Virus record (IMG/VR): IMGVR_UViG_3300046536_000804
Length of the DNA: 64,000 bases
From: an uncultured virus (IMG/VR IMGVR_UViG_3300046536_000804)
Taxonomy: Duplodnaviria; Heunggongvirae; Uroviricota; Caudoviricetes
Strand: one strand, 5' to 3'
Notes under the pieces: model-generated
Database searches by the model: none
Seen by the model: the letters and a program-made list of their open reading frames with translations, nothing else
What the model was told of the DNA's origin: nothing
Program-made: the position numbers and the translations under genes
In this document: positions 312-36,596 of the stretch, piece by piece
How positions within the stretch are numbered: position 1 is the stretch's first letter
Layout: each line of letters begins with the position of its first letter

Positions 312-349
312 AAAAAAGCCCTAAGTTGCACTTGCACAACTTAGAGCTT
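312..349 (-). terminator. Putative intrinsic terminator after the tRNA cluster
   Basis: Inverted repeat CTAAGTTG/CAACTTAG followed by a T-run on the minus strand (A-run at 312-317 on +). Confidence 0.55.
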
Positions 350-476: not shown

Positions 477-549
477 CGCCCTCGCTCGGATTCGAACCGA
501 GGTCTCAACCGTTTAGAGCGGTAGTGCGATGCCGCTTCGCCACGAGGGC
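477..549 (-). tRNA. tRNA with CUA anticodon (amber-suppressor-like)
   Basis: Minus strand folds as GCCCTCG-TG-GCGA/TCGC D arm-ACCG[CTCTAAA]CGGT-CTCGG[TTCGAAT]CCGAG-CGAGGGC-G; anticodon CTA. Confidence 0.85.
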
Positions 550-1140
550 TTTATTCCTTCCGCAGAATGTTTCTGTCTGCGAGTTGCAGTTTGGGCACAG
601 CAACCTCAGGTTGCTTACGAGACCATTGCGACGATTTCCGTCTATGTGATCCAAGATAAGTACAAGCGGTTTGCCGAACCAAGACGGTGAATTACCGCAT
701 TCGTAGCAGTTGTTGTTCAGGATGCCTTCGGCGATCAGTCTTCGTTTTCTACCGCCACCGATGGGGTGGTCACTGTCTGCAACTAACACCTCCGCCCACG
801 GCGTACGTTGTCTGATTCCTGACGTGCCGTGACTTAACCCTTTCCAGTGGCTGGTATCAAGACCGTGTCTCGCCACTTCGCGTTTCACCCAGCTATAGGC
901 AGAGCCTACAATAGCTCGATTCATCTTGCGAAGGACTGCTGATATGCTCAAGCTCTCTGCAACAGCCTGTTTGAACGCGTCAACGTCGTATCCTTGCCGT
1001 CGGTTACTTACTAGATGGTCAAGGCGGTGTTTCTTGATCCACCAGCGAACAGTTGATCGCGAACAATCAAAATAATCGGCGATCTCCTGTAGCGATTCGT
1101 CGTGGATCGTCAAACGCTGCTCGAGAATATTTTTGTCCAT
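505..1140 (-). CDS. HNH homing endonuclease with N-terminal HTH
   Basis: CYECG...LDHIDGNRRNGLVSNLRLLCPNCNSQT HNH/zinc motifs; N-terminal SLQEIADYFDCSRSTVRWW HTH; likely start ATG at 1140; 3' end overlaps the CUA tRNA. Confidence 0.9.
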   Translation of the reverse strand: MDKNILEQRLTIHDESLQEIADYFDCSRSTVRWWIKKHRLDHLVSNRRQGYDVDAFKQAVAESLSISAVLRKMNRAIVGSAYSWVKREVARHGLDTSHWKGLSHGTSGIRQRTPWAEVLVADSDHPIGGGRKRRLIAEGILNNNCYECGNSPSWFGKPLVLILDHIDGNRRNGLVSNLRLLCPNCNSQTETFCGRNKALVAKRHRTTALNG

Positions 1141-1167
1141 ACATACTATCGTAGCACAACAGGAGTG

Positions 1168-1207
1168 GCGGAGCAATTCGCTGCTCTGCCAATTGAGCTA
1201 CGGCCGC
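1168..1207 (-). pseudogene. Truncated tRNA 5' half
   Basis: GCGGCCG-TA-GCTC-AATTGGCA-GAGC-A-GCGAA...; canonical acceptor 5' strand and D arm, but no T arm or 3' acceptor strand before the HNH gene. Confidence 0.6.
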
Positions 1208-1213
1208 TTACAT

Positions 1214-1287
1214 TGACCTCGCCTGGAGTCGAACCAGGATTACGACCGTTTAACGGGTCGGGAATTAGCCAATTATTCGACGAGGTC
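1214..1287 (-). tRNA. Atypical tRNA with 8-nt anticodon loop CGTTAAAC (likely UUA ochre-suppressor-like; UAA possible)
   Basis: GACCTCG/CGAGGTC acceptor, GAAT/ATTC D stem, CGACC/GGTCG anticodon stem, CCTGG-TTCGACT-CCAGG T arm. Confidence 0.75.
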
Positions 1288-1292
1288 TAAAG

Positions 1293-1464
1293 AGCCGGTG
1301 GCAAGATTCGAACTTGCGTCCAACGGTTTATTAAACCGCTGCTCGAGCAGTGTCAGCTCTGGCGTTCTTCACCGGTTGTACTTCCCGGCTATCACCGCTT
1401 TCGCTTGGCTGCCAGATCATCGCAACGTTAACGCCCGCGACGATCCCCACTGAGCTACACCGGC
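1293..1464 (-). tRNA. tRNA-like gene, anticodon AAT, with a 107-nt D loop
   Basis: GCCGGTG/CACCGGC acceptor; GCTC/GAGC D stem enclosing 1345-1451; GCGGT[TTAATAA]ACCGT anticodon arm; GCAAG[TTCGAAT]CTTGC T arm. Confidence 0.7.
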
Positions 1465-1468
1465 ATAG

Positions 1469-1587
1469 CGGCGGTGGCTGGATTCGAACCAACACCTCCC
1501 AGCAAGCTGGGTGCTCACCACCCCGGAAGGGGAGTGCCGATCTTTGCCGGCGAACCGGTTTCGAAGGACACATTGAGCTACACCGCC
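1469..1587 (-). ncRNA. tRNA-like RNA with a 58-nt D loop and no canonical anticodon loop
   Basis: GGCGGTG/CACCGCC acceptor; GCTC/GAGC D stem enclosing 1517-1574; CCCAG[CTTG]CTGGG arm; GTTGG[TTCGAAT]CCAGC T arm. Confidence 0.7.
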
Positions 1588-1624: not shown

Positions 1625-1981
1625 TCACGCTGCTGCCAGGGACAAGCCCCGCAGCAACTTCTGCTTACGGAACACCCGCCGCTGCTCGCCCGACACCAAC
1701 TCGGTGGCAAACGCCGTCATCTCGTTGTCGAGATCCTCTTCCCAGAACTCGCTGCAGCGGATGCCGGCAGCTCTCGCAGTCTTCAGCATCTCGACGAGTT
1801 CTTTCTCGTCGGCGACGGTGCAGATGACCAGGTTGGGACTCTCGACGTCTTCAGGGGTGAGATGGTTGCGTGCCGATTTGATGGCAGCATGGCAAGCCTG
1901 GACGGCCTGCTGTGGGACAGAAAGGTCTTCGCGGACGACGCAATAAATGTACTGCGTTGGACTGGAGATCTAGTGAGTCAT
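1625..1981 (-). CDS. Peptidyl-tRNA hydrolase Pth2-like protein with in-frame TAG at codon 4
   Basis: AAGGAG RBS, then ATG ACT CAC TAG ATC...; read-through gives MTH*ISSPTQYIYCVVREDLSVPQQAVQACHAAI...LVICTVADEKEL...FWEEDLDNEMTAFATE (Pth2-like YxVVRxDL..QxxHA pattern); missed by the ORF track. Confidence 0.7.
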
Positions 1982-2060
1982 GACTCGCTCCTTGGGGTTG
2001 AAGATGACCACAAACACATTGTAAGCTCCGGCCTGGCGCCGGCAAGGGGAATTCCGATTT

Positions 2061-18507: not shown

Positions 18508-20871
18508 TTAGGCGTCCTCCTTTTTGACGAACCTCCTTAGATCTTCCGCCAGATCGTTGGAGGAGTCGTGCAGTCGTGGGTGGTTTGACATCAGCGGCGC
18601 GAAGGTCCGCAATAGCTGATCCTGCTCCGGCAGAGTGCACTGGTGATACATCTTGGTCTTGGTGCCGTACAGACCGGGTCGGTGGATCTCGAAGCTGCCG
18701 GACTTGCCCTTCGGATCACTGCCTCGGAAGACTGCCATCGGTTTACCAGATTCGTCGTGGTGGGTCGCCATCCGATGCTGGGGCAACGGATAGACCAACG
18801 ACTCGGCTGGCTCGTCATCATCCCCATCGTCAAAGTTGATCTCGTGGCCAGCCTCGTGCTCCTTCTCTGCGGAGAAGATCTCGTGATCGTCCGGCAGATG
18901 GTACGAGGCGGCTTTGCTGAACTCCGGTTCGGGCGGGGCGTTCATCTGTGCCAGAATCGAGGCCGCCGGCTTGGGTGGCTTCGGGATATCGTTCGTCGCG
19001 GTCCAACCGCGGAGCGGTGCCGCTTTACCGAAGTCGACTGCCCGGGCGAGCGACGGCACGAAGCTGGTGCCTGTCTCATGACTGGTATCACCGCGGTGGG
19101 CGCCGGCCAGCAGACCGCGCTTCAGGTACGAGCCAAGAAGCCTCGTCATCCAGTCCGGATCGTGGGTGAGGTTCTCCATGCCACGAACCATTCGCGGCTG
19201 GAAGGCCGGCGGTTCGGCGTGCACAGATACGTTCTTGACGCCGAACTCATTCAGCTTCTTCACGACCGATGGCCGGACCAACGTGCCGATCGAGTAGTGC
19301 AGGACCGGCTGTTCCAGGTACTTGCCCTTGGCGTAACCGACGGGCACCACCTGGTGGCCTTTACGCGGTTCATAATTGTGTTCGATCGCGTTGTAGGAGA
19401 CCACGTCGCCAGGAAGACGGTCACCCATCTCGTCGGCCAACTCAACATGGTCGATGAGGGCACGAGCCAGGACTTCTACATTGCGGCGGTGTACTGAGAT
19501 ACCGGCGTCTTTGTAGGCCTGAACAAAGGCATTCACGAAGTAGTGACGACCCTCGCCGACACCTTTGTGTTTGACGATCTCGGCCGGATTGGGCAGTCCA
19601 TCCGAGAGAACATCGCCGGCTTCAACTTCTTGGCCGACCTTGATGATCGGGTCGTAGCCTTGCCCGATGTAGTGGTTATGCCCGGAGATCATGACGTAGG
19701 TGCCGCCCTGCGGTGCTGGAGCTATCGATGCAACTTTACCATCCTCCTGAGCGTGTGAGGCGCCACCCTTGAACGTTCGAGGGACTTGAATGTACTGCTC
19801 GATGAGCGGGAATCCAGACGGGCCGACCGGTCGAGAACCCTTGGCCACGCCGCCCGAATGTTTTTCGCTTAAAGCTGCCTGGGTAAGGGGTTCCGACAAT
19901 GCCTGGCTCGCTGCAATGCCGACAAAGTCACCGATCGGTGCTAGGCCGCCCTTCTCCCGATGACCTAGATCTCTTGAGTACAGACCGCTCGCTGGGCCAC
20001 CGACGATCGGACTGCGCACCAGCATGCGTTCGAAGCCTCGGTCACGGATGTCAGCGATGACTTTGGGAGTCAGAACTGTGTTTCTCTCATAGGGTCCAAC
20101 CTTGACCGCCAGCAAAGCTCCCTCGTTATGCGGATCGTCGACCGAGACCGGCAAGCCTCTTGGTGCATCATCAGCGTGTTCGTCATCATCACGATCGACC
20201 GCAGTGACCACCAGCCGGTGAGACGCCTGGTTCAACTGCTTGCTGATCGCTCCGGTGTCACGTACCGACATCTTGGTCGACAGCACACCTTTGCGTGCCC
20301 CGAACGTCCCGGCGAAGTATTCAGCCGGGGAAAGCCCCTGACTGTAGCTATGCAGGATCGGCAACGGGATTGGTCGATTGCGGTGATCCACATAGAGAAG
20401 ATCGCCAGCCCGGAGAGATCGCAGGTTGGTGGGATTGCCGCGGGCACCGGAGATGATCTGCATGCCGAACGGATTGTGCTCGCTCAGGGATTCCCGAAGA
20501 ACGTCGTCGGTCAGCTTGTCGCCGGCTCCAGAGAGGAGATTAACGATGCGTTCGGACTTGGCTGCCTCGTCGAGCTTCTTGTTGGAGTAGATCGATTTGA
20601 TCTGGGCGACAAGCTCGTGCTGGGCACGCCGGCCGGCGACGCTCAGCCGCAGATGTTCGGTGCCGAAGCTGTTGCCACCGGTGAGCTGTGCGGCGTGTTT
20701 GCCGACTTGCAGGAGGTGTTGAGCCACTTCACGATAGGTGTCCGGACCAAGAGCCTCGGCCCTCTTGAGAAGATTCTCCAGGCCTTTCTTGTCGAGCACC
20801 TCATCGAGCCCTTGAAGCTCTGGAGGCAGCCCGCTGTTGACCGCCAAACGACCAATGGTGGTTTTCAGCAT
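18508..20871 (-). CDS. Phage RNA polymerase beta' C-terminal half
   Basis: SGARGN; GLSPAEYFAGTFGARKG...DTG (bridge helix); GDFVGIAASQALSEPLTQAALSEKHSGG (trigger loop); HRRNVEVLAR. Confidence 0.92.
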   Translation of the reverse strand: MLKTTIGRLAVNSGLPPELQGLDEVLDKKGLENLLKRAEALGPDTYREVAQHLLQVGKHAAQLTGGNSFGTEHLRLSVAGRRAQHELVAQIKSIYSNKKLDEAAKSERIVNLLSGAGDKLTDDVLRESLSEHNPFGMQIISGARGNPTNLRSLRAGDLLYVDHRNRPIPLPILHSYSQGLSPAEYFAGTFGARKGVLSTKMSVRDTGAISKQLNQASHRLVVTAVDRDDDEHADDAPRGLPVSVDDPHNEGALLAVKVGPYERNTVLTPKVIADIRDRGFERMLVRSPIVGGPASGLYSRDLGHREKGGLAPIGDFVGIAASQALSEPLTQAALSEKHSGGVAKGSRPVGPSGFPLIEQYIQVPRTFKGGASHAQEDGKVASIAPAPQGGTYVMISGHNHYIGQGYDPIIKVGQEVEAGDVLSDGLPNPAEIVKHKGVGEGRHYFVNAFVQAYKDAGISVHRRNVEVLARALIDHVELADEMGDRLPGDVVSYNAIEHNYEPRKGHQVVPVGYAKGKYLEQPVLHYSIGTLVRPSVVKKLNEFGVKNVSVHAEPPAFQPRMVRGMENLTHDPDWMTRLLGSYLKRGLLAGAHRGDTSHETGTSFVPSLARAVDFGKAAPLRGWTATNDIPKPPKPAASILAQMNAPPEPEFSKAASYHLPDDHEIFSAEKEHEAGHEINFDDGDDDEPAESLVYPLPQHRMATHHDESGKPMAVFRGSDPKGKSGSFEIHRPGLYGTKTKMYHQCTLPEQDQLLRTFAPLMSNHPRLHDSSNDLAEDLRRFVKKEDA

Positions 20872-32153: not shown

Positions 32154-35100
32154 TTAATGGTGGACGATCTCCACCGGATCGCCGGGCTCTAACTCGCCCG
32201 CGTGCCACGCCCGCATCGCATCCGCCTTGGTTGCGAAGACCCTCGGCTTCTTCTTGAGCTTCGATACTGCGGTGGAAGCGTGCAGACCACCAACGAACTC
32301 GACGCTCGGTTGGTAGATCGGCTTCTTGAAGTCGGACACCGCCAGCAGATTGCGACTGGGCAGCATCTTCTGGGCGGCTTCCTTCGCAGCATCGTCATCC
32401 GCGACGACCTCGTAGTTCATCATGTCGCCATCGTTGTCGGCGTTGAACGGCTTGTAGACCAGCGGGCTCATCTGGATCGTGTCGCTGCGGGACAGCCGCG
32501 GGAAGAACGCCATGCGACCGAACTTGTGGAGCACCGGCGCCCGGCTCACCATCACCGGCCGGGCGTCCATCTCAGCGATAAGGGCACGCCGTGCGATAGG
32601 ATCTCGGTTCTCGACGTTCTCCAGAGCTTTGACCCGGCCGACCCCTTGCCGCACCAGCCGCCGCACCAGGAACGGCGAATAGACCTCCCAGGCTCGGGCT
32701 TCGGGCAGAGCAATCTCGTCCATGGATAGGTCCGGGTTCGGCGCCAGCACTGCCCGGCCAACCAGATCGAGAGTGGTGCCGAGCAGCTTGCGCTGGAGCG
32801 AGCCGTACTTCGGACTCGACCCGAACACCTGAGCCAGCAAGCCTTTAACGTTCCTCTCCTGGTTCTTCGGTTGAACTGGGTCACCCAGTCCTACCAACGC
32901 CTTGAACGACTTGTAGAGCGTTGACCGTTCCTCAGAGAGATCGTCTACCTGCCCGTGCAGATCCTTGAGGTTCTGATTGGCGTCGAAGACCTCTTTGTAG
33001 AGGTAGTTGGCGTCCGACACGAGCTGCTGCTTCGACTGCATCTGCGAGATCGGCCGAAAGATCGGCGGCAGCACCGGCACCTTGGTGAGCATCCAGTCGG
33101 CCGGAGTCAGGCCTTGCTTCTCCAGACCTTTGAGGTATCGCAGGCGACGTACGGCGGCGTCGCGGGCCATCTTGCGGCCGTTCTGAACGGTGTCACGCTC
33201 GTTGACGATTGCCTTCGGGACGTCGATCTTCTGCAGGGCGGCCTGGATCGCCAGCGGCCCGGTGCGGCCGTCCAGAGGTTCCTGGCCAGCCAGGACGGCG
33301 TGGAACTGCTTACCGGTCAGCTTGAGGAGGTAGCGGATCGGATCCTCGAAGACCGGGTTCGGCATCGGCTCGTGGAGCTTGATGTAGCTCCATTTGTTGC
33401 CGCCGTGGCCGCCGGTGAGGTCGGGAGCGAACAGACCGCCAGACTTCGGCTTCATGCCTTCCTGCCAATCAACCGTCTCGGCGTTCTTCAACTCGCGGTT
33501 CTCAGCGAGATCGTCGATGTGCTTGTCAGTCAGCGCCATGAGGTGCTGCTGATCGCCGGTACGGTGCACATTGATACCAGATGCCCGCAGACTCTCGATG
33601 AACTTGTGATACACCTGCGGCGAGGACGGAGACGGCGGGTTGAAGCCGGCCATACGCGTGGCCCAGTATTCCTGGTTGTTCTGCCCGCGGATCAGCCGGG
33701 CGTCGCGGAGAACTCCCGTGGCGCCGTGAGCGAGGATGGCATAGATGTCCATACCGCTCAGGCGTTTCGCAGAGCCGACATTACCACCGAGCTTGGCGGG
33801 AGCACCCTCCGACGTGTATGAACCAAGACCGCGGCCTTGGCCCTTAGACTCCACCTGGTGGTGAAGCTTCATGTAATACCGCACGCCGGTCGCAACGTTG
33901 ACGTTGTGACCGGTCTGCGGATCTTGCACAGTCTCCGCACCAGACATACCGTGTTTCTTTAGCTCTTGCTCGGTCCAGTCGAGAAGATCGCGATCAGCGA
34001 AGTCCTCGACGGCATAGGTCTTGCCCGTCTTGGCAGCGATCTTGCCGAGCCAGCCTTCAACCATCTGAGCCGGGTTGCCGCGGGTGATGATACCCAGCGG
34101 ATTCGCAAGCACCTCATAGGGTTGCTTGGTGACCGGATCGATCGGCATCTCGTGATCGGGGATGATGTGTCCAACGATACCCTTATCGCCGTACACCCCT
34201 GAGAGCTTGTCGCCTACCCGCATCGGCTGCACCGTCTTCACGGCAACAACCACACCCTTCGCCGTCGGCATCACGTCGGTAACGACACCGTCCTCGTCGT
34301 GCTCCCAGAGCACCGATCGATCGGCGAAGGAGCCCTTGTGGGAAGCGTGCACGGTCTTGTGGGTCGTGGGGCGTTCTGCGGCGGCGAGGATCAACGGATC
34401 ACCGTGCTTGACGATAGCACCCGGCTTGATGTAGCCGGCATCGTCAAGGTTGTTCAAGGTCTTCTTGTCGAACTTGCCGGCGAAGATGGCCGTGAAGTTC
34501 TTCTTGCCCAGCCGCTGATTGGGATCGAACTCGAGCTCGTGCTGGTACAGGTGTTCCGAGGAGAGCTTCTTTGCAGCCGACTCGGAGATCGAGGTAGCAT
34601 CTTCGAAGTTCTTACCAGCCCACGACATGTAGGCGGTTCGAAGGTTCAGACCAAGCGCCAGGTGACCTTTATCGTCGGTGTAGTTGCTCTTGGCCAGCAA
34701 CTGCCCCGGCTGAATAGGATCGCCCTCTTGCACAACGGGGGTGTTGTGCATCAGCGTCTTGCGGTTGTTCGGGAAGTTGTTGTAGAGCTCGTGCGTTTCC
34801 TTGGTGCCGTCGGCATAGCGAACCACGATCTCGTCCGGGGAGATGCTATCCACCCGGCCGGCTTGATCTTTCGCATGAATGGCGCCCATGTGTTTGCCGT
34901 GCTTCTCGGCGAACGACATTCCAGGCGAGCCAGGTATCTGCGAACGGACCAGCGGCGCCTCTGCGTTGAGCAGCGGCAGAGCCTGGACGAGAAACCGAGA
35001 ACCCATCGAGACGCGCTGACCTTTGGCGGCGTTCTTGAACGGCACCAGGTTGGTCACCGGGCTGAACCATTGCTCTGCGTGCGGCAGGACCAGGTCGACC

Positions 35101-36596
35101 TTCTCGCGTTCGACATATCTCGGCTTGCCCTTCACCAGGGCCTGCACGTGCGATTCGCCCTTTTCCATCTCGCCGGGGAAGGCGAGGACCATCCCGGTGA
35201 CTTCCTTCGGGTTCTTGTAGACGACCTTCTTGGTTGTCGGGTTGGTGTAGGGGGCGTACAGCCGGCCATCGCTGCCTTTACGGGCAGTGTAGGCAGTGCG
35301 GCTCTCCACGCCAGCCGAGAAGCTCTCGGGCGTCCGGATCAGGTCCAGGTAGCCAACGTGGCTAGGCAGCACGCTGCGGGCCTCATCGGGCACGGCGTCT
35401 GACGAGCTGATACCGCCGCGACCCAGGCGGGTGACCGCGGTCTGCTGATCGAGCCATTCGACTGGGTTGGTGTCTTCGAGTGACATCCCAAGACCGCTGT
35501 CCTGGATGGCGCCACGCAGATGTCGATCCAGGGCGTTGACCGGCACCGATTTCAACGAGCCGCGGGTCGAAGCACGCCAGAGGAGCTGGTGCAGCAGCAG
35601 CCCTGGCCGCTTCAGCCGCTCGGACAGCAGGTCTTCCGGCCCCATGACGTGCTGGTAGGCCAGGTGATCGCGGTCGTCGGTGTCCGCATCGCCACGATTG
35701 ACGGCCAGGAGCTTGCGAGCGACCGAAAGGATGGTTGCCTGATCGAGGTGCTGATGTCCTTGCCCTAACGTGCTCTTGTTGACGTCGGGATCGAATTCCA
35801 TCTTCGACAGAGCTGCCACGACGGCTCCGGCTTTGTCTGGTTCTTCCTCGCCAGCCTTCTTCGTGCGAATGAGCTTCTGATAGAGCTTATCGATCGCCCG
35901 AGGATCGACCTTCTTGGCATTGGCGGCGTACAGCTCGTTGCCCCACTCCTTGCGGAGCTGGTCATCGGTCATGCCGAACGCCTTGAGGACGGAGATCAGC
36001 GGGATGCTCGACTGGGCGAACTCCATCTTGAATACCCCGGTATCGGGCTCAAGACTGTAGCGATGGGACATCCCTTTGCCGGGACGAACATTGGCGTGCG
36101 ATTCCAGCTCGCCGTTCTCCTTCTGGCGAGTGTAGATGCCAGGGTCCAGACGCATCTGGTGCTTGAGGGAGTTCTGAGTGCCGTTGAGGATGAAGGTGCC
36201 GCGTTGAGTCAGATACGGAACCTTGGCGAGGGTGATCCGCTTGCGTTCGACCTCTTTGCCGTCGGCGTCGCTGAGCACCCAGGTGCCACGCAGGCGTCGA
36301 GCGGCAGTGCCGTTGCTGAGAATGAGCTTCTTCTGCTGCTGGAGCGAGAGATGCTCTGGGTCTTCGTAATCGACGTCGTGGAGGGCAAGCTGGAACCTGG
36401 CATTGGAGACCGGCTGGATCGCCTTGGCTGCGTCCAGAACATTGGTGTAGATCGCCTGACGTGTGGCTGCGGAATCACCAAAGTCTCGCATAGACAAAGG
36501 CTTTGGCGCCTCCGGTTCTTGCGGCTTTGGTTGAAGAGCCTTCAGAGTTGGCTTGGCAACCTCCGGGGAGGATGCCGCCGTGAGGATGCTTGGCAT
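32154..36596 (-). CDS. Phage RNA polymerase beta subunit fused to beta' N-terminal (catalytic) half
   Basis: Beta motifs GKNFEDA, VGDKLSGVYGDKG, NPLGIITRGN, YYMKLHHQV, KRLSGMDIYAILAHGA, then beta' motifs VPVLPPIFRP, LLGTTLDLVGR, RAPVLH and NADNDGD. Confidence 0.93.
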   Translation of the reverse strand: MPSILTAASSPEVAKPTLKALQPKPQEPEAPKPLSMRDFGDSAATRQAIYTNVLDAAKAIQPVSNARFQLALHDVDYEDPEHLSLQQQKKLILSNGTAARRLRGTWVLSDADGKEVERKRITLAKVPYLTQRGTFILNGTQNSLKHQMRLDPGIYTRQKENGELESHANVRPGKGMSHRYSLEPDTGVFKMEFAQSSIPLISVLKAFGMTDDQLRKEWGNELYAANAKKVDPRAIDKLYQKLIRTKKAGEEEPDKAGAVVAALSKMEFDPDVNKSTLGQGHQHLDQATILSVARKLLAVNRGDADTDDRDHLAYQHVMGPEDLLSERLKRPGLLLHQLLWRASTRGSLKSVPVNALDRHLRGAIQDSGLGMSLEDTNPVEWLDQQTAVTRLGRGGISSSDAVPDEARSVLPSHVGYLDLIRTPESFSAGVESRTAYTARKGSDGRLYAPYTNPTTKKVVYKNPKEVTGMVLAFPGEMEKGESHVQALVKGKPRYVEREKVDLVLPHAEQWFSPVTNLVPFKNAAKGQRVSMGSRFLVQALPLLNAEAPLVRSQIPGSPGMSFAEKHGKHMGAIHAKDQAGRVDSISPDEIVVRYADGTKETHELYNNFPNNRKTLMHNTPVVQEGDPIQPGQLLAKSNYTDDKGHLALGLNLRTAYMSWAGKNFEDATSISESAAKKLSSEHLYQHELEFDPNQRLGKKNFTAIFAGKFDKKTLNNLDDAGYIKPGAIVKHGDPLILAAAERPTTHKTVHASHKGSFADRSVLWEHDEDGVVTDVMPTAKGVVVAVKTVQPMRVGDKLSGVYGDKGIVGHIIPDHEMPIDPVTKQPYEVLANPLGIITRGNPAQMVEGWLGKIAAKTGKTYAVEDFADRDLLDWTEQELKKHGMSGAETVQDPQTGHNVNVATGVRYYMKLHHQVESKGQGRGLGSYTSEGAPAKLGGNVGSAKRLSGMDIYAILAHGATGVLRDARLIRGQNNQEYWATRMAGFNPPSPSSPQVYHKFIESLRASGINVHRTGDQQHLMALTDKHIDDLAENRELKNAETVDWQEGMKPKSGGLFAPDLTGGHGGNKWSYIKLHEPMPNPVFEDPIRYLLKLTGKQFHAVLAGQEPLDGRTGPLAIQAALQKIDVPKAIVNERDTVQNGRKMARDAAVRRLRYLKGLEKQGLTPADWMLTKVPVLPPIFRPISQMQSKQQLVSDANYLYKEVFDANQNLKDLHGQVDDLSEERSTLYKSFKALVGLGDPVQPKNQERNVKGLLAQVFGSSPKYGSLQRKLLGTTLDLVGRAVLAPNPDLSMDEIALPEARAWEVYSPFLVRRLVRQGVGRVKALENVENRDPIARRALIAEMDARPVMVSRAPVLHKFGRMAFFPRLSRSDTIQMSPLVYKPFNADNDGDMMNYEVVADDDAAKEAAQKMLPSRNLLAVSDFKKPIYQPSVEFVGGLHASTAVSKLKKKPRVFATKADAMRAWHAGELEPGDPVEIVHH

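Follow-up and report, generated by a model that had tools for sequence, protein, structure and literature searches.

The 64,000-nucleotide (nt) stretch of uncultured-virus DNA analyzed here (the window; Caudoviricetes, IMG/VR record IMGVR_UViG_3300046536_000804) carries on its minus strand, at 1625-1981, a gene for a protein resembling peptidyl-tRNA hydrolase 2 (Pth2) whose fourth codon is an in-frame amber stop (TAG), and 1.1 kilobases (kb) downstream of it, on the same strand, a suppressor tRNA gene with anticodon CUA. Comparison among related loci shows, at the level of sequence, that the early stop is conserved, that it fits the anticodon of the accompanying tRNA, and that gene and tRNA are linked. 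These properties probably reflect conserved programmed read-through, in which the phage tRNA(CUA) would decode the amber codon and the level of the enzyme would be set by the activity of the suppressor relative to release factor 1 (RF1).

The start of the gene was read directly from the minus strand: AAGGAG (1993-1988), a 6-nt spacer, ATG (1981-1979), ACT, CAC and TAG (1972-1970), past which translation gives ATC and 113 further sense codons ending at TGA (1627-1625). Between the TAG and the conserved YIYCVVREDL block there is no ATG, GTG or TTG in frame, and the earliest in-frame ATG, at 1789, would give only a 54-residue C-terminal piece, which is the version of the gene that a gene caller returns (P0002). 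An earlier note on this DNA, made from its letters, had described a strong ribosome-binding site followed by ATG-ACT-CAC-TAG and 114 open codons, the lack of an alternative start before the conserved block, a co-oriented CUA tRNA at 477-549, and the use of TAG as an ordinary stop elsewhere (at 2361, 22174, 28970 and 36608, all of which are correct); each of these readings holds. The features concerned are as follows.

2018 to 2045, minus strand: promoter-like TTGCCG-16-TACAAT, a consensus match in the 80-nt gap after the TAA (2061) of the upstream gene

1988 to 1993, minus strand: Shine-Dalgarno sequence AAGGAG, 6 nt upstream of the ATG

1973 to 1981, minus strand: opening sense codons ATG-ACT-CAC (Met-Thr-His), from direct reading

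1970 to 1972, minus strand: in-frame amber at codon 4, next base A; an early stop is shared by 30/57 family loci

1628 to 1969, minus strand: Pth2-fold protein of 114 codons, with its stop TGA at 1625-1627

477 to 549, minus strand: tRNA with anticodon CUA (anticodon 516-514), found by ARAGORN and by the Rfam tRNA model (52.7 bits, full model)

The promoter-like consensus occurs in the window at chance level (2 sites found versus 1.5 expected in shuffles) and is a weak positional hint. A Shine-Dalgarno-like motif is placed likewise before the ATG of the short frame that ends at the early stop (the mini-ORF; ORF, open reading frame) in most homologs, and the M-T-H opening is common to Serratia phage BF, the uncultured phage LR756511 and locus L014 of the survey described below, and is also the start of L176. 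Coding scores at the gene are 23.1 for the 114 codons past the TAG and 3.2 for the 15-codon stretch preceding them. The predicted RNA fold of 2012-1900 is no better than that of shuffles (z = 0.04), and there is thus no sign of a read-through-stimulating structure in that segment. None of the sequencing runs listed as containing the stretch is an RNA run, and a search of a phage collection for near and distant DNA matches to the window returned only a 61-nt HNH stretch.

The 114-residue part of the protein matches the Pfam family PTH2 (PF01981) at 29.2 bits against a curated cut-off of 23, and the family profile recovers Pth2 sequences from the PDB at E = 6e-7 and 2e-4. An AlphaFold2 model of the protein has a predicted local distance difference test score (pLDDT) of 94.7, and in Foldseek all 13 listed matches at E < 0.001 are Pth2 structures or close structural relatives, with query template-modelling scores of 0.53-0.74, the highest value being that of the match to M. 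jannaschii Pth2. A phmmer search of 1.84 billion representatives gave 1042 relatives at E <= 0.001; the PHROG label for the families of the Pth2-like protein is 'unknown function'. With the archaeal and eukaryotic Pth2 proteins (PF01981) the protein thus shares the alpha/beta fold, the Pfam match and the motifs R-x-D-L and Q-x-x-H-A. Unlike canonical Pth2, however, the window's family is a separate divergent subfamily: in a profile alignment the loop that is GKGK in canonical Pth2 is 2 residues shorter and its KK aligns to QQ, and an acidic E-P-D (E-E-D in the window) stands one position off the aspartate of the DAG motif, a comparison made at the sequence level. The GKGK-loop lysine and the DAG-motif aspartate are regarded as the catalytic residues of Pth2. 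Phages CBB and XacN1 have another annotated Pth in addition to their member of the family. PTH2 in jumbo phages has already been noted, in passages of a paper that propose a role in ribosome rescue (PMC7824862).

Conservation of the stop was evaluated first among named phages. A tblastn search of 50,697 phage records gave 41 with a match, of which 13 were read, and 9 of the 13 homologs open with ATG, one or two codons and TAG: M-T-H-TAG in Serratia phage BF and the uncultured 595-kb phage LR756511, M-S-H-TAG in Yersinia fHe-Yen9-04, M-L-TAG in Ralstonia RsoM2USA and Salmonella Arash, M-T-TAG in Acinetobacter ME3, M-A-Q-TAG in Pectobacterium CBB, and M-A-H-TAG in Xanthomonas XbC2 and Erwinia Kaldavass. 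In Xoo-sp13, CM1 and XacN1 the Pth2-like domain is fused behind an HD-like domain and has no stop, and Myrna reads GTG-TAG-GTG, the second GTG being the annotated start. The gene is absent from the GenBank records of BF, Yen9-04 and RsoM2USA and is shortened to a later start in those of Arash, ME3, CBB, XbC2 and Kaldavass.

The survey was widened by a protein search of IMG/VR (13 loci), by a back-translated AVQACHA pattern (71 loci in IMG/VR and 119 in metagenomes), and by a search of one genome per species (4 loci, all in Planctomycetota or unclassified metagenome-assembled genomes, MAGs); because a back-translated pattern was used, the survey is biased towards members with the AVQACHA motif. 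A domain filter at E <= 1e-8 kept 69 of 217 loci, and these, minus 15 duplicate fetches and one 322-nt fragment and plus the 4 MAG loci, make up 57 distinct loci (numbered L). Thirty of the 57 have an early stop after ATG and 1-9 codons with no ATG before the conserved block (28 TAG, 1 TGA, 1 TAA; an in-frame GTG lies between stop and block in 6 of the 30), in 3 a mini-ORF and its stop are followed by an ATG, either at once or no more than 4 codons on, 8 have a normal start but a TAG at one loop position, 3 are stopless HD-like fusions, and 13 have no in-frame stop.

In a maximum-likelihood tree, whose median end branch is 0.51 changes per site over the whole tree, the early stop occurs in 28 of the 34 rows of one deep half. 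In all 28 loci with an early TAG a purine follows it (14 A, 14 G), which is the context most favourable to amber suppression. The frame of the mini-ORF ATG is always that of the enzyme, and the residues T-G-F-T precede the stop in L176, L262, L264 and L265 with synonymous changes in their codons (ACC/ACT, GGT/GGA, TTC, ACG/ACC). Amber codons recur at a second place as well, the loop ahead of the 'EHPH' or 'W..N.K' strand (e.g. DP-TAG-V, PG-TAG-D), in L024, L025, L080, L113, L150, L163, L190 and L243, and also in L015, L093 and L111; in one clade this loop TAG is kept in 8 of 9 members although the flanking residues vary. In the model the early stop falls in the N-terminal tail ahead of strand 1 and the loop TAG of the other clade falls between helix 1 and strand 2, positions that should, as far as the model goes, both tolerate any residue. 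Internal TAGs are present in L015, L024, L025, L080, L093, L111 and L113, whose phages look TAG-recoded. Because the arrangement recurs in many distantly related large phages, it has the appearance of a deliberate switch and not of a defect.

The type of stop and the type of suppressor tRNA go together. Where the fetched DNA of a locus with a mini-ORF stop also contains a suppressor tRNA, the combination is TAG with CUA in 19 cases and TGA with UCA in 2 (L061 and L017), and never a mismatch. In the first 13 IMG/VR loci a tRNA(CUA) lies within about 0.3-3.1 kb of the gene in 12, and in the thirteenth the mini-ORF ends in TGA and a tRNA(UCA) stands 60 nt upstream. L061 opens M-K-TGA, and the only tRNA in its 6 kb is a co-oriented tRNA(UCA) ~0.3 kb upstream; in the tree this locus is sister to the TAG-bearing L111 (support 99/88). 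Of the 40 distinct family loci from IMG/VR and metagenomes, 28 have a suppressor tRNA; the count is 28 of 33 when only loci of at least 2.7 kb are considered, and 7 of the 12 loci without one are no longer than 620 nt. Control loci, i.e. chance matches of the same DNA pattern, have a suppressor tRNA in 0/41 viral and 0/107 metagenome cases, and tRNAs of any kind are present in 13 of these 148. Among the tabulated family loci the suppressor is co-oriented with the gene except in L024 and L080, and is often the sole tRNA of its locus.

Each of the four MAG loci (L262-L265) combines an early TAG with a tRNA(CUA) no more than about 1 kb away. The MAGs in question are assigned to Planctomycetota or unclassified, and one of the loci sits on an 8.3-megabase Rubripirellula chromosome. 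Prophages, or phage contigs that were binned wrongly, could explain these loci, which give a hint of the hosts that this group of phages may infect. A tRNA(CUA) was also found in 7/7 isolated phages checked (BF, CBB, RsoM2USA, LR756511, Arash, ME3 and Myrna). In GenBank the tRNA(CUA) of Arash (L008 2804-2878) is labelled tRNA-Phe and that of Myrna (L010 1975-2046) tRNA-Ser; ARAGORN reads both as CUA. XacN1 is described as having two tRNA(CUA) genes, and its authors report that reading through all 18 amber stops in silico found no target (PMC5852040).

To see how far such a gate extends within one genome, every in-frame TAG of phage BF (357 kb, whole genome) was scored by the coding potential of the start-less stretch behind it. 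The Pth2-like gene ranks first genome-wide and its HD-like neighbour fifth. The HD-like gene follows the Pth2-like gene directly (L001 1812-2378, i.e. BF 286418-286984; in the same place in L002, L011, L012 and L013), has TAG at codon 47 (ELDTG-TAG-GD) in 5/5 Eneladusvirus and Mimasvirus records and Val in Arash and ME3, and in GenBank is split into two small ORFs or left half unannotated. The other BF candidates (350450, 78591, 113964, 221370 and 115911) were rejected as spurious, lacking a ribosome site or ATG, and at least one is proline-rich. TAG ends 12 of the 474 called ORFs of BF. On the strength of this screen, standard-code phages like BF contain a closed set made up of the suppressor tRNA and the only clients that can be seen for it.

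In Xanthomonas and Stenotrophomonas phages, and likewise in P0011, P0056, P0059 and P0108, the HD-like partner (phrog_14850) forms the N-terminal part of a fusion with the Pth2-like domain. A model of the fusion P0011 (pLDDT 90.7) matches 'tRNA processing enzyme' entries of the class II tRNA-nucleotidyltransferase type (E 2.5e-3), with other HD proteins weaker, and the nearest named cluster in the Atlas is 'putative polynucleotide adenylyltransferase', with HD on 15% of members. Pfam gave nothing for the partner proteins at E <= 0.01, with a sub-threshold HD match (E 0.039) in P0011. Such matches are leads, not proof, that the partner is an enzyme of the tRNA-end type. A third domain (W-G-F-H-P-C ... 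W-x-R-W-x-R-K-x-P-x-N-R) is fused behind the Pth2-like domain in P0006, P0021, P0026, P0037 and P0051 and, in more divergent form, in P0089, and adjoins the Pth2-like gene in L015 (9705-10109), L017, L093 (3389-3802), L111 and L176; it has no Pfam match and no usable match in the ESM Atlas. In the window itself a tblastn search for the HD-like and third-domain partners gave no significant match (best E 0.15).

Explanations other than programmed read-through were considered against these results. One is a neutral ratchet, in which the suppressor does read the stop but to no regulatory end, TAG having been tolerated beside a suppressor gene and then fixed. The modelled position of the site, in an unstructured tail where any residue fits, would suit such a history, as would the members that have no stop and the many family phages that are TAG-recoded, in which TAG is just a codon. 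It does not account for a stop that has remained inside the first 2-10 codons at 30 loci spread over a deep clade, for a second clade that keeps its loop TAG in 8/9 members while neighbouring residues vary, for a switch to TGA that came with a UCA tRNA, or for standard-code phages such as BF, where credible in-frame TAGs are confined to the Pth2-like gene and its partner; neutral fixation is thus considered unlikely.

A second possibility is termination-reinitiation, the mini-ORF of 2-10 codons being a leader whose peptide RF1 releases before the ribosome restarts at or near the next codon, with no need of a suppressor tRNA. The stop is followed at once by ATG in L017 and L086 and by GTG in L085 and Myrna, as expected of such a leader. 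An Ile or Val codon (ATH or GTN) comes next in 19 of the 30 loci with an early stop, ATT and ATC being weak starts; in 10 of the 30, however, the next codon is AAT, AAC, GGN or ACN, which are not starts. Restarting does not predict the fit between stop and anticodon, nor the predominance of TAG (28/30 loci) when the two genomes scored use TAA most often as a stop, nor the retention of T-G-F-T ahead of the stop through synonymous changes, and the ribosome site is spaced for the ATG of the mini-ORF rather than for the TAG. Reinitiation is for these reasons regarded as distinctly improbable.

Genome-wide reassignment of TAG in the window's phage (code 15) would fit with the presence of tRNA(CUA) and with relatives of the gene in phages that look TAG-recoded, yet it is very improbable: with TAG taken as sense over the 64-kb window, the Pth2-like gene is the sole frame with a clear coding score after an in-frame TAG and no other frame codes on both sides of one, and TAG ends 10 of the 77 ORFs of the crude gene set (70 of them on the minus strand, tightly packed), with normal gene junctions after it. 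TAG is therefore a normal terminator in the window and the amber at 1972-1970 is singular, so that the window shows neither the many in-frame TAGs nor the disuse of TAG as a terminator that mark code 15. A sequencing or assembly error, or a decaying pseudogene, would also put a stop at codon 4 of an otherwise intact gene that callers skip or shorten (as in P0002 and likewise in GenBank records), but is next to inconceivable when the Logan contig of rhizosphere run X1 (70.8 kb at a mean word depth of 13.8, made by a different assembler from what may be the source sample, and so not independent as a sample) has 0 differences over 1400-2400 and the same stop, with an intact ORF behind each, recurs in 30/57 loci. 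The unrelated run X2 covers only 1432-1640, with 3 differences.

The earlier note had itself named three ways in which its proposal could fall: an assembly error, homologs without the stop, and a protein unlike Pth2. None of these applies, in view of the second assembly, the shared stop and the Pfam, AlphaFold2 and Foldseek results, respectively; the co-occurrence with suppressor tRNAs that it had suggested looking for is borne out by the stop-anticodon pairs, and its reading of suppressor-dependent read-through is supported by the comparison of loci.

Several observations nevertheless count against programmed read-through or narrow it. Since 13 of the 57 loci have a normal start and no stop, and the 3 HD-like fusions are also stopless, the gate is not obligatory. 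In L017, L086, L085 and Myrna, restart at the codon after the stop fits equally well, although these may be lineages that have escaped from suppressor dependence. L110 has an early TAA (MKRPDT-TAA) and no tRNA(UUA) in its 6 kb, and in L074 (L074/L108) the family ORF extends for 44 codons behind a TAG that neither a start codon nor a mini-ORF precedes. The counts are phylogenetically non-independent, as with five GenBank phages that are close relatives, and the read-through itself is deduced from comparison. Hydrolase activity is not assured, because the catalytic lysine of canonical Pth2 aligns to glutamine. Finally, at least 9 other genes of the window end in TAG, 9 of them on the strand of the gene, with read-through extensions of 1-99 codons, so that an active suppressor has a cost that the model leaves unexplained.

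Programmed read-through, which remains the favoured explanation, would operate as follows. Translation would start at the ATG at 1981, and the amber codon would enter the A site after Met-Thr-His. RF1 could then end translation, leaving a tripeptide, or the phage tRNA(CUA) of 477-549 could insert a residue and allow synthesis of the full 118-residue Pth2-fold protein; because tRNA(CUA) and RF1 compete at the amber codon, the amount of enzyme would track suppressor-tRNA activity relative to RF1. The suppressor tRNA and the Pth2-like protein, as a putative tRNA-ester hydrolase, would together make up a module, to which other phages add the HD-like partner and the third domain, and the enzyme would support suppression by attacking the ester linkage in peptidyl-tRNA or (N-blocked) aminoacyl-tRNA. 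The fold, the tRNA-end-type partner and the exclusive link to suppressors point to the ester-linked 3' end of a tRNA as the site of action, most simply that of the suppressor itself. In the preferred version the enzyme would recycle or deacylate the suppressor tRNA, and the product would thereby feed back on its own sensor, with either sign. If negative, this loop would limit how far the phage reads through the TAG stops of its own genes; if positive, it would be a commitment switch suited to code-switching phages.

A more far-reaching proposal is put forward tentatively, as one that is possible but rather doubtful: that the suppressor tRNA, the amber-gated enzyme and its partners form a self-contained circuit, in which the enzyme acts on the ester-linked forms of the suppressor and its own synthesis is set by suppression at codon 3-10, the whole serving as a governor or commitment switch for reading a stop as sense. 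If true, such a circuit would be what controls the switching of genetic codes in phages, and a step on the way to it.

The tRNA(CUA) of the window has a G1-C72 pair and a 5-nt variable loop, and CCA is not encoded. Similarity to other tRNAs, used as a guide to the amino acid inserted, gave no clear identity. An initiator-type tRNA(CUA) that starts translation at the UAG was also considered and is ruled out by the G1-C72 pair together with the spacing of the ribosome site for the ATG. Around the tRNA(CUA) lie further features.

1214 to 1587, minus strand: three odd tRNA-like genes between the Pth2-like gene and tRNA(CUA), co-oriented with them, found by ARAGORN and Rfam

505 to 1176, minus strand: HNH homing-endonuclease ORF, matching a PHROG HNH endonuclease at 1.1e-38, with weak Pfam matches to HTH and HNH_3

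312 to 347, minus strand: hairpin of 11 pairs with an 8-nt loop, followed by TTTTTT, read by eye and not listed by the motif scan

The first of the tRNA-like genes (1469-1587; 48 bits) has a 54-nt insert in its D-loop and a 4-nt anticodon loop in the model alignment; the second (~1301-1465) has a longer insert and the anticodon loop UUAAUAA, and only its part 1301-1348 was scored (29.1 bits); the third (1214-1287) has an 8-nt anticodon loop that ARAGORN reads as 'ttaa' (Stop or Leu). The HNH ORF is flanked by an apparent 5' tRNA half (~1200-1150) and by tRNA(CUA), with which its last 45 nt overlap, and looks like a homing endonuclease inserted into the tRNA array. The hairpin is likely the terminator of the gene-tRNA unit. 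Elsewhere in the window PHROG matches include multisubunit RNA-polymerase beta-type proteins, a virion-associated lytic domain, a helicase and thymidylate synthase. The large ORFs at 32154-36596 and 18508-20871 (minus strand) match the beta-type RNA polymerase families, which suggests a jumbo phage with its own RNA polymerase; by its gene content the window looks like part of a large phage.

A search of full-text literature, with supplementary tables outside its reach, found no link of the family to suppressor tRNAs and no description of the early stop. Suppressor tRNAs of phages have been noted as lacking known targets in the XacN1 paper (PMC5852040). Such tRNAs are common in large standard-code phages, and the present finding names a conserved client gene that travels with the tRNA and, in Rak2-like phages, a second client as well. 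It offers a natural and directly testable example of tRNA-gated gene expression, and a possible regulator of stop-codon reassignment. GenBank records, too, need correcting where they omit or shorten the gene and enter the tRNA(CUA) as one for Phe or Ser.

Among known systems, the bacterial gene prfB (release factor 2) is autoregulated via an early in-frame UGA and infC (initiation factor 3) via an AUU start, and the likeness lies in a translation-factor gene that bears, near its 5' end, the signal whose decoding reports translation activity. Unlike prfB, the window gene stays in frame, with no +1 frameshift, and would need a dedicated tRNA; the product of prfB acts on its own decoding event, an action that for the window enzyme is suggested by analogy. 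The bar minigenes of phage lambda, associated with peptidyl-tRNA drop-off in pth mutants, are toxic decoys with no relation to any downstream ORF. They resemble the present arrangement in combining an ORF of 2-3 codons that ends in a stop with a link to peptidyl-tRNA hydrolase, and differ in that the window mini-ORF is in frame and continuous with the hydrolase-like gene. Canonical Pth2 likewise differs: the window's family goes together with suppressor tRNAs and has a stop interrupting its own coding sequence. A further parallel is with recoded phages, in which a phage suppressor tRNA gates genes with in-frame stops and a 'code change module' of suppressor tRNA, aminoacyl-tRNA synthetase and release factor is described (Borges et al. 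10.1101/2021.08.26.457843); the words 'hydrolase' and 'peptidyl-tRNA hydrolase' do not occur in that text. In the phages described there, many late genes are recoded and the module's own genes are in standard code, whereas in the phage of the window TAG serves as a stop and the module itself apparently includes the gated gene.

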